A stretch of 64,000 nucleotides of DNA from a virus: positions 17,327 through 81,326 of IMG/VR virus record IMGVR_UViG_3300032157_000002, one strand, 5' to 3'. Of this stretch, positions 6,403-34,663 are shown in pieces. The notes under the pieces were generated by a model. The model worked only from the letters and a program-made list of their open reading frames with translations, was not told the DNA's origin and made no database searches. Position numbers and translations under genes: made by a program. Position 1 is the first letter of the stretch. Each line of letters begins with the position of its first letter.

Positions 6403-7398
6403 TTACGCTGCTTTGTCGAGCCCGATCAAGACGCGGTGCGCGGAATGCTCCACCACCTTCAGCTTGCCCGGCTGCGCCCATTCCTTGGCCAGCCAGCCAT
6501 TCAGCGAAGTCTTGGCTACCGCCTTGCCCAACCGCTCGCTGAGCGCCTGAGCAAGCTGGCGCTTGGAGACCAGCACCGAATATTCCGGCTTCTCCAAGAG
6601 CAGGGAGACCAGCTCCCGGTAAACCTCGTCCTTCTTGGCCTTGCTTCCCGTCTGGGGCTTGGCGTCAAGCACGATGCCAAAGCTGCTGGCCTTAACCGCC
6701 TTGCGATCCTCGCGCAGCATCATCGCGCCAGGAATCAGGAAGTACACCAGCATATCGAGGATCAGCGAACCAAACGAACCCTCGATCGCATCGACAATCG
6801 TCTTGGCTGCGATTGGGGAGAAGCCCATGGCCACAAAGCCGATGGCAAAGCCCTTCACCTCAACCGTTTTGACCGCCTCATTCTGCGCCTTCAGCGTCTC
6901 GCGCTTAGCCTCCAGGGCTTCGCGGCGAGCCGCTTCATCAGCAAGGCTCATAAAGTTGGCGCACTTGCCGCCGCAGAACTTGTTCTTCTTCTCCTCCTCT
7001 GCCAGCTTGATCAGCGTGGCCGAAGAGCGCTTCTCAGCAAAGCCGGCAATCTCAACCGTCAGATTGGCGATCTCGGCCGCCCGCTCTGCCTTCTTCACAT
7101 CGGCCTGCATCGATTCCCAAATCGGTGCCCCGGCCTTGTTCGCCTGATAGCTGGCAATGTTGAACAGGCTGAACGCCGCCAGTGCACCAATCGCCACCAT
7201 CAGATTGCGGCTCCAGCCCTTGAAAGCGCCAATCACCGGAACGCTCATGCGAGCGATATCGGCAAGCGCCAGGATCATGGCCGCATACCATGCTTTCTCC
7301 AGACCATGGCTCACATTGAGCGTCAGGCTGGTCATGCCCGCTGCGAGACCGATGACCAGCATCAGTGCGGCAGCGCCGTATTTGATATAGTTGAGCAT
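6403..7398 (-). CDS. multi-pass membrane protein with coiled coil and C-terminal HTH-like segment
   Basis: 3-4 TM helices, FCGGKC motif, KRQLAQALSERLG...TSLNGWL. Confidence 0.75.
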   Translation of the reverse strand: MLNYIKYGAAALMLVIGLAAGMTSLTLNVSHGLEKAWYAAMILALADIARMSVPVIGAFKGWSRNLMVAIGALAAFSLFNIASYQANKAGAPIWESMQADVKKAERAAEIANLTVEIAGFAEKRSSATLIKLAEEEKKNKFCGGKCANFMSLADEAARREALEAKRETLKAQNEAVKTVEVKGFAIGFVAMGFSPIAAKTIVDAIEGSFGSLILDMLVYFLIPGAMMLREDRKAVKASSFGIVLDAKPQTGSKAKKDEVYRELVSLLLEKPEYSVLVSKRQLAQALSERLGKAVAKTSLNGWLAKEWAQPGKLKVVEHSAHRVLIGLDKAA

Positions 7399-8000: not shown

Positions 8001-8118
8001 CCCAGACGCCGCCAATTTCTTACTGGATTGCCATGCTGAGCATGGGCGGCGTCTGGGAGAGGGGAGCCGGTGCCACTTTCGTGTTGGGCTTGCGCCACCT
8101 TCGTATTGGGCACCGGCT
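8001..8118 (-). ncRNA. TIGR-like array (2 units)
   Basis: CCA-TGCTCAGCA-TG-GCAAT-CCA-GTAAGAAAT-TG in 12-bp stem; CCA-ATACGAAGG-TG-GCGCAAGC-CCA-ACACGAAAG-TG in 9-bp stem. Confidence 0.8.
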
Positions 8119-14702: not shown

Positions 14703-14759
14703 GAGCCGGCGCCATACATTGTACTGGGCTTGCGCCATGGCGGTGTTGGGCGCCGGCTC
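14703..14759 (-). ncRNA. TIGR-like unit (1)
   Basis: GAGCCGGCGC-CCA-ACACCGCCA-TG-GCGCAAGC-CCA-GTACAATGTA-TG-GCGCCGGCTC. Confidence 0.8.
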
Positions 14760-30920: not shown

Positions 30921-31101
30921 CTCGGCATCCCAGTCTTAATCTGGGGTGCCGTTCTTTTGTGGAATCAGGCACTCTATTTCCCCGTGGCAGCGCTCGCGGT
31001 CGCCGCGCTCCTGGCCATCTCGCTGATGGCGATCCACCTCACGCCGGAGCCGGCCGAGACCCTGCCGCCACCTGACTATCTACCGATGGGGAAGCCACAA
31101 A

Positions 31102-32568
31102 ATGGTGAGCGCGCCGGCAATTAAGGTTGAGCCCAATTGGCAAGAGGCTTGGCTCAGCAGCGCCAATAATCCCTGGCTGTTCGCCACGGGGGTGATGGGC
31201 TATCTGCCGGCCGGCGTTCCCAATCCCGATGGCGCGCGCCAGCTCGAAAAATGGCAGGACAAGTTCCTGCGGGACTTCTTCCTCGACCCAGCCGGCAATA
31301 TCACCGACAGTCCGCGCCATACCGTTCGCTCCGGCCATGGCGTCGGCAAGTCCACCATCATCGCTATCCTGGCCCTCTGGTTCCCGCTGACCCATTACGA
31401 CAGCAAGACGGTCATCACCGCGAACTCGCAAGACCAGCTAAAAACCAATAACTGGCCAGAATTACGAAAGCAATCCAAGCACTTGCCGGAAGCGCTGCAA
31501 GCCCAGCTCCAAATCGATGAAGAGCGAATGTATATCAAGGCCTCGCCCGAGATGGCCTTTGTGGTGCGACGCACTGCCTCGAAGTCTAATCCGGAAGCCC
31601 TCGCCGGCATCCATGCCGAGCATGTGCTTTATCTGATCGACGAAGCCTCTGGCATTGACGATATCGTCTTCGAGACCGCGCAAGGCTCGCTGTCCACCCA
31701 CGGCGCCATTGCCTGCATGTTCTCCAATCCAACCCGCACCTCGGGTTTCTTTTACGACACCCATCATGTGCTTTCAAAGCGCTGGCGCGGCTTCCATGTC
31801 TCATCGGCCGATGTCGCCCGAGCCCAGGGCCATATCGAAGATATTATCACCGCCTATGGCAAGGGATCGAACAAATATCGCGTCCGTGTCGAGGGCGAGT
31901 TCCCCAATCAGGATGACGATACCGTGATCCCGATGGCCTGGGTGAAGGCGGCGATTGATCGCGATGTGAGCCCGCTTGATTTCCTGCCGATCTGGGGGGT
32001 GGATGTGGCGCGGTTCGGGGATGATGCCTCCGCGCTTGCCAAGCGACAAGCCAATCGGCTGCTGGAGCCGGTCAAGATGTGGTTTGGCAAGGACAATATG
32101 CAGCTTACCGGCCTCATCATGGCGGAATATTACGGCACTCACGAGGATATGAGGCCCAAGGAAATCCTCATCGATGTGATCGGCAATGGCTCGGGTGTGG
32201 TGGATCGCTGCCGCGAAAATGGCCTGCCGGTGCGCGGCATCAATGTGGCTGAGAGCAATGCCTCAGATGACCGCTGCTTTAAACTGCGCGATGAATTGTG
32301 GTGGAAGGGGCGCCAGTGGTTTGAGGCGCATGATTGCTCAATCCCCAATGATTTGCGGTTGATCTCTGAGTTGGTGGTGCCGACCTATGACCACCATTCC
32401 TCGGGTCGCATTGTGGTGGAGACCAAGAAGGATATGAAGAAGCGGGTGCCGGCGATGGGCTCGCCGAACTGCGCTGATGCCTTGTTGTTGACCTTTGCGG
32501 CCAATCCTTACCGCAAGATGGTTGACCGCAAGGGGCCGCCGAAATGGCGGAACCCTTGGGCCGAATAA
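31102..32568 (+). CDS. terL: terminase large subunit
   Basis: VRSGHGVGKST Walker A, YLIDEASG Walker B, WGVDVARFGDD RuvC-like nuclease, SPNCADAL. Confidence 0.95.
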   Translation: MVSAPAIKVEPNWQEAWLSSANNPWLFATGVMGYLPAGVPNPDGARQLEKWQDKFLRDFFLDPAGNITDSPRHTVRSGHGVGKSTIIAILALWFPLTHYDSKTVITANSQDQLKTNNWPELRKQSKHLPEALQAQLQIDEERMYIKASPEMAFVVRRTASKSNPEALAGIHAEHVLYLIDEASGIDDIVFETAQGSLSTHGAIACMFSNPTRTSGFFYDTHHVLSKRWRGFHVSSADVARAQGHIEDIITAYGKGSNKYRVRVEGEFPNQDDDTVIPMAWVKAAIDRDVSPLDFLPIWGVDVARFGDDASALAKRQANRLLEPVKMWFGKDNMQLTGLIMAEYYGTHEDMRPKEILIDVIGNGSGVVDRCRENGLPVRGINVAESNASDDRCFKLRDELWWKGRQWFEAHDCSIPNDLRLISELVVPTYDHHSSGRIVVETKKDMKKRVPAMGSPNCADALLLTFAANPYRKMVDRKGPPKWRNPWAE

Positions 32569-33323
32569 GCAGCCACTAGCAGGTTGGGGCGGGTTACGCC
32601 CACGGCAGCAATGGGCTGCTAATGGGTTGCGGCCAAGTTCCTAATGGATGGCAAGTGCGCTATGGGCCGCTTGTTGGTGCCATGGCCAGATTGGCTTTGG
32701 GGATCACCAGTTCTGTGGGCCATGGACTTTGGAAAGAGGGGGCATGGCCACCGTTCCGTGGCGAACAATTCTTTGATGGGCCATGCCGATTAAGAATGAG
32801 ACGGCCATACTTTGACTGGGCTTCATCGCTGTGCTGGGCCGCGATATTGGTGGCCGGCAGGGGGGATGGAAGGCGGCTCCCTTAAATATCGGGAGATCGA
32901 GCTTTGTTTCCCTGCCGGCCTGAGCGATGGGGGGTTGCCTCCTGGGAGATTTTGCCCATCACTCATCTCGTTTGCGGCCAAGCTTGCCAATGGAAGGCAG
33001 TCGTGCCATGGGCCGCGACATTAGTGGGCCAGCGGGGGAAGGAAGCTCTGGAGCTTATTGCCCGCTGGCCTGAGTGATGGGGGATTACCATCTGAGATAT
33101 TTATCCATCACTCATCTCGTTTGCGGCCAACTTGGAGATGGAAGTCAATCGTGCGTGGGCCGCGATAGTGGTGGCCAGCAGGGGGATGAAGACGCTTGCG
33201 ACGTTTTGTTCCCCGCTGGCCTGAGTGACGGGGGGAAAACACTGATGTATCCAGAAATTTCCCATCACTCAACTCGTTTGCGGCCAAGGACATCATGGTG
33301 GATCATGATTGGGCGTGGGCCGC
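32568..33323 (-). ncRNA. large TIGR-like array (8 units) with three repeated double-hairpin linkers
   Basis: Units at 32568, 32629, 32680, 32742, 32802, 32974, 33123, 33280; all read stem-CCA-N8-10-TG-loop-CCA-N8-10-TG-stem on minus strand. Confidence 0.85.
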
Positions 33324-33427
33324 GAATTCCGGTGGTGATCTGATCAATCCCTCGTTCTGTGCAACGTAGCGCGGACGCTCTGCTGTTGGTCAGTGCATCC
33401 ATAACTGGCCAGACCACCGTGATTCGA

Positions 33428-33456
33428 TATATAATTCGGGTTACGCGAAAAGGCAA
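33428..33456 (-). promoter_or_regulatory. promoter facing the 8-unit array
   Basis: TTGCCT-N17-TATATA. Confidence 0.6.
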
Positions 33457-34663
33457 GAGGCCAGATGCCGTGTGGTTTGCCATAAGCTGCTTGGGCCTCG
33501 AATTTAATGGAAGCAGCCATGATAGAGTGGCTACCAAGAGATTTGTGGGCTGCTTTGCTCATAATATGGAGACCGACTGTGGAAAACGCAAGTGAGACGA
33601 TCGCCAAGCGCCTCGTGGAGGATTGGATGCAAGAAAATAAGCTTTACCTATTGGATGGCGATATGCGCATCCTGCATCCGATTGCCCGCGAGGCCTTAAT
33701 CAGCCGGATCGTCAAGGAGTTGAATGTTAATGGCCAAGCCGAAATCGCGTCTGATGGAAAGGCTAAAGCGCGCAAGAAGGCCAAGGATTGATATCCCGAT
33801 GGCCGAATGCGTGGTTGATCTGGGCCGCTATCTCGGCATGCCGGTGCGCGCCGAGCCCCGGCTGGAAGACGGCGCCTGGGGCTTTTCAGATCAAGGTGAA
33901 GTTCTGATAGCCCATGACCTTTGGGAAAAGCTGGCCATCGCCACTTTTGAGTTTGAGTTGCTGACGGAGATTGACGATGACGATCCTAGTGGCAAGGCGC
34001 AAGGTGCCGACAAGATTAGCGCAGGATGACTGGCCGATTGCCATGCGTCTCTGGCGCAACGGCATGGATACATTTGCAATTGCCCAACATCTCAAGGTGC
34101 ATGAATCGCGGGTTTACAATACCCTCTATAGTATGCGTGAGGAGCGGCGTCGCGCGGAAGGCGATTTGTTCGATGCCGCGATCGCAAGAGAGAGGGCAAA
34201 TCGTGGCGCGGCTGAGCAAAAAGGATTGGAACAAACTCAAGAAGGTGATGGGAAACTATAAGGGAACCTTGCAGCGCGGGGTGAAATGGACCACGGGAAG
34301 AGAGCGCAGGGGCTGGACCAAGAAGGTTGCGGCCAAGACCAATGGGGCAGCCGAGCATTAAGGAGACCAAGCCATGAGTAGACAGCAATCCAGCACGCCA
34401 GACTTAGAGGAATCACCTCGACGCAGCGGCGGCAATCGCAAGGAAAAAGTTTGGATTGTTTGGCATCGCTATAATGCTGAGATGCGCGCTCGTCTTGACC
34501 AACTTCGACGCGAGAATAGCCGAAGTTGGTGGCCGCGCGGGTCTCACAACTGGTCCCGCCACGGCAAATATGCGACGCGCGGAGCCGCTCAAATGGCGGC
34601 CGAGAAGAATGGAATGATGCAGCACTTTGAGTTCTGTATCACGCATAAGGACGATGAGAAGCC

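Follow-up and report, generated by a model that had tools for sequence, protein, structure and literature searches.

Directly 3' of the large terminase gene terL (31102-32568, plus strand) of a soil virus lie ~940 nt of non-coding DNA carrying a series of hairpins, which raises the question of what these hairpins encode, on which strand they are read and how such a series could have grown. The window analysed here is a stretch of 64,000 nt, bases 17327-81326 of the 102,270-bp soil virus record L002 (IMG/VR IMGVR_UViG_3300032157_000002; CheckV completeness ~91%), and positions are those of the window unless given as genome positions. The initial annotation of this DNA had read the region as eight guide RNA units with an antisense promoter of their own and double-hairpin linkers. 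The promoter motif, the units and the linkers were all found, and the number of units rose to ten, with units 9 (33457-33499) and 10 (33511-33555) upstream of the proposed promoter. We conclude that the locus is probably a ten-unit stem-loop array of tandem interspaced guide RNAs (TIGR) whose Tas partner would act in trans.

Guide units and their probable Tas partner

Ten hairpin units, defined by a regular-expression grammar and a covariance model, are repeated in tandem on the minus strand within 988 nt (32568-33555). Read on that strand, a unit consists of a GC-rich stem ending in GC, followed by CCA-N8-10-TG, a short loop, a second CCA-N8-10-TG and the returning stem, and all ten units fit this box C (CCA) and box D (UG) grammar with spacers of 8-10 nt. 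The stem-loop guide RNAs (tigRNAs) described for TIGR systems have the same layout, with two 9-nt spacers, CCA before, UG after, and a palindromic stem (Faure et al. 2025, PMC12045711; Xu et al. 2026). The minus strand was assigned to the units by analogy, because their box order matches this published grammar, and on this reading the array would be transcribed towards terL, as the initial annotation had proposed. It would also end where that annotation had placed its end: unit 1 and the terL stop codon (32566-32568) share one base, the last of the codon.

The grammar matched the genome 37 times; in 30 dinucleotide-preserving shuffles the mean was 0.57. The covariance model R1, trained on 14 units that all lie outside the terL-side array, recovered 10 of the 10 units on the minus strand at 14-37 bits, with at most 10 bits on the plus strand at the same places, and gave no score anywhere in the linkers or the leader. 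Grammar and R1 scores together bear out the earlier view of the hairpins as guide RNA units and place them in the stem-loop TIGR type. In a genome-wide scan R1 found about 45 units at some 14 loci. Unit stems measure 5-8 bp in the terL-side array and up to 13 bp elsewhere in the genome; their inner G-C and C-G pairs are invariant and their outer pairs covary among units, and since stem pairing was a selection criterion for the units, only the diversity of the stems is informative. In published stem-loop tigRNAs, too, conservation of the stem is confined to the bases that adjoin the boxes (PMC12045711; bioRxiv 10.64898/2026.09.09.750476). Within the array, unit 1 has a 13-nt loop with a mini-hairpin, and a repeat search (family D5) found the core of unit 2 to be 76% identical to that of unit 6. 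Rfam, at gathering thresholds and at E values up to 10, returned nothing at the locus, leader included, and a blastn search of the array against 50,697 phage records gave no match. Elsewhere in the window, the units at 8065-8118, 14703-14759, 42463-42514 and 48314-48367 form a second loop class beside the usual 4-5-nt loop.

A reading of the repeats on the plus strand, as the 3' untranslated region of terL, or as elements acting purely at the DNA level (REP- or MITE-like palindromes, recombination sites) rather than as guide RNAs, would suit the plus-strand orientation of all flanking genes and the strand symmetry of the hairpins, and a census of wobble pairs in the unit stems (8 G.U versus 6 A.C) is indecisive on the strand. 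We regard this reading as very improbable. The mirrored grammar has 0 matches in the whole genome, R1 scores are 12-29 bits higher on the minus strand, units at other places in the genome have the orientation of neighbouring tRNA genes and promoters (always so for the adjoining tRNA genes at 3654, 21983, 42409, 43065 and 48314), and the genome encodes a cognate Tas protein.

The gene for this putative partner of the minus-strand guide array lies outside the window, ~48 kb from the array (genome 592-1626, minus strand; 345 aa, P0002). When SpTasH from Salicola phage CGphi29 was searched against the six-frame translation of the genome, this open reading frame (ORF) was the single and top match. 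The P0002 sequence reached PDB entry 9mty with E = 4e-5, and a profile of 51 P0002 homologs matched only TasR 9MTY (3e-23) and TasH (3e-12) in the whole PDB; the same family profile directly matched SpTasH, and the genome has a single tas gene. The AlphaFold model of P0002 (pLDDT 89.7) retrieved, in Foldseek order, TasR, TasH, the IS621 recombinase and Prp31/Nop5, and in the model residues 18-126 form long helices only, with HNH and RuvC domains absent. By its modelled fold, P0002 is a nuclease-free Tas protein of the TasA type, with a coiled coil plus a Nop domain. In Pfam it had only a weak Transposase_20 match, and the six-frame genome search with the Pfam Nop model gave no match, a false negative given the SpTasH and fold matches. 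A longer plus-strand ORF overlapping tas (P0003) was rejected as antisense junk.

Homologs of P0002 numbered 63 in metagenomes, several of them on contigs of about 100 kb, and in relatives a gene of the Xre-type helix-turn-helix family directly precedes tas. A relative's contig with a 54%-identical Tas (L087) carries the same CCA/TG units at three loci. In the present genome one tig unit (genome 1663-1709) lies just 5' of tas and is the only unit adjoining it.

Several points weigh against the identification of the locus as a TIGR array served in trans. Unlike at nearly all published loci, tas is not beside the array; Xu et al. annotated arrays surrounding tas loci (bioRxiv 10.64898/2026.09.09.750476), and array-tas adjacency is how the published loci were found, not a mechanistic requirement. 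The published CUU processing motif occurs at only about half of the unit bases: units 10, 9, 5, 4 and 1 have it at the 3' stem base or no more than ~10 nt away, and units 8, 7, 6, 3 and 2 lack it. The wobble census in the unit stems leaves the strand undecided. Finally, a target search with both geometries and gaps of 0-2 gave matches at control level only, in the phage's own genome at up to 3 mismatches and in 680 kb of DNA from relatives' loci at up to 2, and thus yielded a target for none of the guides; the targets presumably lie in the host or in unrelated competitors. The positions of the units and of the neighbouring features are collected in Table 1.

Table 1 Features at and around the terL-side array (window positions unless marked as genome positions; MFE, minimum free energy; z, fold z-score; H1 and H2, first and second linker hairpins)
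Feature	Position	Strand	Evidence and remarks
terL, large terminase, 488 aa	31102-32568	+	tblastn 42-46% identity to annotated large terminase subunits; convergent with array
tig unit 1, last in predicted transcript	32568-32620	-	grammar; R1 14.1 bits
tig unit 2, stem GCGGC	32629-32670	-	grammar; R1 36.6 bits
tig unit 3, stem CCATGGC	32680-32725	-	grammar; R1 29.4 bits
tig unit 4, stem GGCATGGC	32741-32787	-	grammar; R1 21.6 bits
tig unit 5, stem GCGGC/GCCGT, last of putative expanded block	32801-32842	-	grammar; R1 31.7 bits
Linker C	32843-32973	-	H1 32921-32965, H2 32852-32920, then ACCA; MFE -56.5 kcal/mol, z = -5.63
tig unit 6	32974-33016	-	grammar; R1 22.4 bits
Linker B	33017-33122	-	H1 33071-33114, H2 33027-33070; MFE -44.1 kcal/mol, z = -5.99
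tig unit 7	33123-33163	-	grammar; R1 24.0 bits
Linker A	33164-33279	-	H1 33222-33271, H2 33173-33221, then ACCA; MFE -47.0 kcal/mol, z = -5.52
tig unit 8, leader-proximal	33280-33323	-	grammar; R1 19.5 bits
Conserved leader element	33324-33456	-	sigma70-like promoter motif and ~95-nt hairpin
tig unit 9, upstream of leader	33457-33499	-	grammar; R1 23.1 bits
tig unit 10, antisense inside next gene	33511-33555	-	grammar; R1 27.2 bits
Second promoter-like site CTTGCG-N20-TATTAT, 5 nt before unit 10	33560-33591	-	candidate from sequence reading; spacing longer than optimal
Small conserved gene, 94 aa, first of plus-strand block after terL	33507-33791	+	homologs directly after terL in L088, L090 and L091
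Promoter-class sites	window 3706, 18837, 21861, 27331, 42369, 48485, 79906; genome 6155, 11621		

Double-hairpin linkers between the leader-proximal units

On the minus strand, units 8, 7 and 6 are each followed by AAACGAG, a first hairpin (H1), a second hairpin (H2) and then the next unit. The H1 stem pairs TGAGTGATGG with CCATCACTCA and the H2 stem pairs GGCC(A/G)GC(G/A)GGG with its complement; the two hairpins abut without a gap, and H2 is followed by ACCA in two of the three copies and by CACU in the third. The resulting modules measure 160, 147 and 174 nt and the distal units are spaced 50-62 nt apart, in good agreement with the 146-175 and 50-60 nt of the initial annotation, whose conserved linkers after the three promoter-proximal units were likewise confirmed by their stems, their compensatory changes and z-scores of -5.5 to -6.0.

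The outer stems of the linkers (10-11 bp) are almost invariant across the three copies. At one stem position the copies form a series of G-C, G.U and A-U, and one pair shows a full compensatory change from A-U to G-C. The loops differ freely and contain insertions and deletions, with inner mini-hairpins being common. The copies are old, their stems are fixed and their loops are free to change, and we therefore take the structure to be under selection. Fold z-scores of linkers A, B and C were -5.5, -6.0 and -5.6 on the minus strand and -4.3, -4.0 and -2.6 on the plus strand, and three of the G.U pairs would be A.C mismatches if read on the plus strand. These comparisons indicate that the stems are held by selection on a minus-strand RNA; it counts against this assignment that in absolute energy the linkers are almost as stable on the plus strand. 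No linker motif was found elsewhere in the genome, and an exact-pattern scan for the unit-linker junction in viral and metagenome contigs gave no match. Matches of a gapped H1 pattern in two viral contigs (L094 and L095) were rejected as unrelated coding sequence with no units.

Since the array converges with terL, with no canonical terminator found between the two, the linkers could serve as bidirectional terminators or insulators that halt read-through from terL and shield the guide genes from convergent transcription, and it would fit such a role that their hairpins also form on the plus strand (z = -2.6 to -4.3), where H1 is followed by TCTCGTTT. This role seems unlikely to us, as the loops are far longer than those of intrinsic terminators, a proper T run is absent, and the G.U pairs and better z-scores favour a minus-strand RNA; moreover, terminators would be expected beside terL, whereas the linkers occupy the opposite end of the array, with five unprotected units in between. 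Another origin is suggested by the way the linker hairpins resemble the units, with a GC stem of ~10 bp, a variable loop of 20-45 nt and often an inner mini-hairpin; in the H2 loop, C(C)TTCCAT stands on the 3' side, and it recurs in the middle of units 6 and 7. The linkers might accordingly descend from guide units that have decayed or become specialised, or they might be small RNAs in their own right, in either case duplicated along with the units and with no role in guide biogenesis. We consider this somewhat less likely still, because R1 found no match in any linker, the CCA...TG boxes are absent from them, and near-invariant outer stems across three old copies argue for a function of the linkers' own. 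We favour the view that the linkers punctuate or stabilise the guide precursor. In published work, flanking sequence sharpens the processing of stem-loop tigRNAs (Xu et al., bioRxiv 10.64898/2026.09.09.750476).

Conserved leader and possible growth of the array

The minus-strand promoter motif TTGCCT-N17-TATATA described by the initial annotation exists at 33455-33427, and can also be read as a sigma70-like CTTGCC-N18-TATATA (33457-33428). It sits in the 133-nt spacer between units 9 and 8, which is the most conserved sequence of the region. Four unrelated runs, from plant, soil, lake and a soil metatranscriptome, have contigs in which positions 33331-33455 (125 nt) show 0-3 differences. Almost nothing else of 31100-34100 aligns at 80% or more in them, so that this leader is far more conserved than the flanking genes. 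Leader words were also found in four more soil metatranscriptome runs, and eight studies besides the source, five of them metatranscriptomes, hold part of the leader, at 97-100% identity. On the minus strand the leader is predicted to fold into a hairpin of ~95 nt (CGGTGGT...ACCACCG; z = -3.18). It is single-copy in the genome, has no copy in any fetched locus, and gave no match in an exact-pattern scan of viral and metagenome contigs.

From these sequence features a leader transcript is likely, and a promoter for the array within the leader is plausible. Sites of the class CTTG(A/C)N-N16-18-TAT(A/T)TN number 10 in the genome and 1.2 in shuffles, an enrichment of about eightfold, and most of them lie just before units or tRNA genes in the same orientation. 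Some observations speak against the promoter and the transcript. The motif has only four of six matches per hexamer and was missed by a consensus scan; the class pattern was partly derived from sites that were then counted, so that the count is not fully independent; and the metatranscriptome contig, which is strandless, covers only the leader and runs ~17 nt past the predicted start. The proposal that the array has its own promoter therefore stands as plausible, with an enriched promoter class in its favour, but the motif does not mark the start of the array, which has two units upstream of it. The consensus scan instead called a plus-strand site, TGGCCA-N18-TATAAT, overlapping the same -10 box. 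Promoter-like sites on opposite strands with one shared AT box, as at 33406-33457, could allow expression of either the array or the plus-strand gene block, one excluding the other.

The three modules beside the leader share a common origin. Together with their linkers, units 8, 7 and 6 form a set of tandem paralogs whose mean column identity is 76%, the spacers of units 6 and 7 are recognisably related, and unit 5 has a stem in common with units 8, 7 and 6. In runs X5 and X4 the leader is joined, at 33331, directly to a counterpart of unit 4 in which 17 bases are identical to unit 4 (the GGCATGGC stem, box C and the first four spacer bases) before the spacers differ. Because these two runs join the leader to a unit-4 counterpart, units 8 to 5 appear to be extra in the present genome, as a block of ~540 nt by the leader. 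By sequence, units 8 to 5 most likely represent a leader-end tandem expansion by duplication and drift, and deletion in the other lineages may be an alternative. It tells against the expansion that it draws on the 30-nt flanks of two short contigs. Across all units, spacer-to-spacer similarity was only about twice the shuffled level.

The content of the array was compared among relatives, as identical arrays in diverged phages would have spoken against spacer gain. Closer terL homologs, with 76-91% identity, were found in metagenomes. In the relative with a 91%-identical terL (L089), homology ends at the terL stop codon, and the minus-strand units beyond it are unrelated in both stem and spacer sequence. 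At terL identities of 80-83%, phages carry a single unit or none after terL, with no units after terL in L088, L091 and L092 (80-82%). Three IMG/VR records with terL identities of at most 57% (L004, L005 and L008) have no units and no Tas, and are too distant to inform the comparison. In run X2, the leader-proximal unit has the stem of unit 8 and another spacer, the stems of unit 9 are kept with different spacers, and unit 10 is identical. One further candidate relative, L093, was discarded as it is identical to the window and comes from the same sample. On these comparisons the array is hypervariable at both ends.

The initial annotation had proposed that the long repeats may record recent, duplication-based spacer acquisition at the leader end, or may be processing signals. 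The part concerning duplication at the leader end agrees with the paralogous modules and with runs X4 and X5. The duplication is not recent, however, because changes and indels have saturated the loops and spacers, whereas the stems have been kept, and none of the data show capture of foreign sequence: the pattern is that of copies that diverged after duplication. Nor is a polarity of the array established. Compared with X4 and X5 the leader is retained and the block next to it is additional, but the trailer end beside terL is also unrelated in L089. As a tentative possibility, stem-loop TIGR arrays may grow at a conserved leader by tandem duplication of a guide plus two-hairpin module, with the spacers drifting and with the leader RNA and H1/H2 serving as dedicated biogenesis elements of a sort so far unreported for TIGR systems.

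At its other end the array reaches into a gene. Unit 10 lies antisense and in frame over codons 2-16 of the ORF at 33507-33791, which is a real gene with homologs directly following terL in three relatives. Compared with these three homologs, the window copy has an insertion of 17 aa after residue 5, and this insertion coincides with unit 10 on the opposite strand.

Two further observations were made around terL in relatives. In L091 (terL 80%), positions 6480-6980 hold ~500 nt of degenerate CGCAACGCA-like short repeats after terL instead of units. Three terL homologs of ~835 aa (P0087, P0118 and P0134) match LAGLIDADG_3 (PF14528), which suggests inteins or homing-endonuclease insertions in the terL of related phages.

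Proposed mode of action and comparison with known systems

In the mechanism we propose, Tas would act in trans on the array and on about 35 further units across the genome, several of them beside tRNA genes. Units 8 to 1 would most likely be driven by the host-type promoter within the ~125-nt conserved leader, and units 10 and 9 by the weaker upstream site. The block of units 8 to 5 would have formed by tandem expansion of the ~150-nt module (guide, H1 and H2) beside the leader. Abutting H1 and H2 could stack into a helix of ~21 bp and may punctuate the precursor: nucleases could enter there, or the hairpins could protect RNA ends, and either way they would help to release or stabilise the neighbouring guides. 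By analogy with characterised systems, each processed guide would bring a dimer of Tas to an 18-bp site on DNA, with one spacer per strand, and the complex would block transcription rather than cut. Supplied with stem-loop guides, both TasA and catalytically dead TasR bound DNA and acted as repressors of transcription in reporter assays (Xu et al., bioRxiv 10.64898/2026.09.09.750476), and because of this, RNA-guided DNA binding and not cutting would be expected here.

The papers on TIGR systems name spacer origin and the maturation of stem-loop guides as open questions (Faure et al. 2025; Xu et al. 2026), and the gain of units by arrays, guide excision and natural targets are stated open questions for TIGR-Tas as a whole. 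If leader-end module growth is true, this locus would be the first natural model for both spacer origin and stem-loop guide maturation. It offers a compact natural test case, with a conserved and apparently expressed leader, three paralogous guide/double-hairpin modules, plain distal units as an internal control, and an array that is wholly different between phages with 91%-identical terminases. As guides can lie tens of kb from tas, annotation tools centred on tas will miss some of them. That a soil phage has about 45 guides for an effector without a nuclease suggests RNA-guided repression on a broad scale, of genes of the host or of rivals.

There is a likeness to the bridge RNAs of the IS110 family and to archaeal box C/D sRNAs, which also have two guide segments, box C/D-like motifs and a Nop-type binding domain; the present system differs in having no DEDD recombinase domain, transposon ends, fibrillarin, L7Ae or K-turns. 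CRISPR arrays likewise place a conserved, promoter-bearing leader beside their most variable end and differ in content among close relatives. In contrast to CRISPR, the units here are hairpins with inverted, unit-specific stems instead of direct repeats, adaptation genes are absent, new units appear through duplication and divergence and not through capture of foreign DNA, and the trailer is not conserved.

Dual-repeat TIGR systems with TasR or TasH (TaTasR, PDB 9MTY; SpTasH of the Salicola phage, PDB 9W03) have the same boxes, 9-nt dual spacers and a homologous Nop domain. Unlike these systems, the locus has no edge or loop repeats, no 36-nt unit and no HNH or RuvC domain, and because both nuclease domains are absent, DNA binding rather than cutting would be expected in comparison with TasR and TasH.

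The closest match is the stem-loop TIGR/TasA kind (PlTasA from a Peromyscus gut contig, BlTasA and MbTasA), which is already published and has been known since 2025. It has the same hairpin units with two ~9-nt spacers boxed by CCA and UG, stems that are unit-specific save for the 2 bp next to the boxes, sometimes a mini-hairpin in the loop, phage-encoded members, a nuclease-free Nop-domain partner, and a unit within coding sequence that does not break the frame. In the searchable published TIGR texts we found no mention of a conserved leader, double-hairpin linkers or leader-side module expansion, nor of an antisense unit inside a gene other than tas. Compared with the published systems of this kind, the array described here is one among about 14 such loci in its genome and lies at a distance of 48 kb from tas; ahead of unit 8 it has a 125-nt leader that is conserved in different samples; two-hairpin linkers of 106-131 nt separate three of its units, where published median linkers are mostly 0-9 nt or given as "longer than 9 nt"; and its embedded unit is antisense and lies in a gene other than tas.

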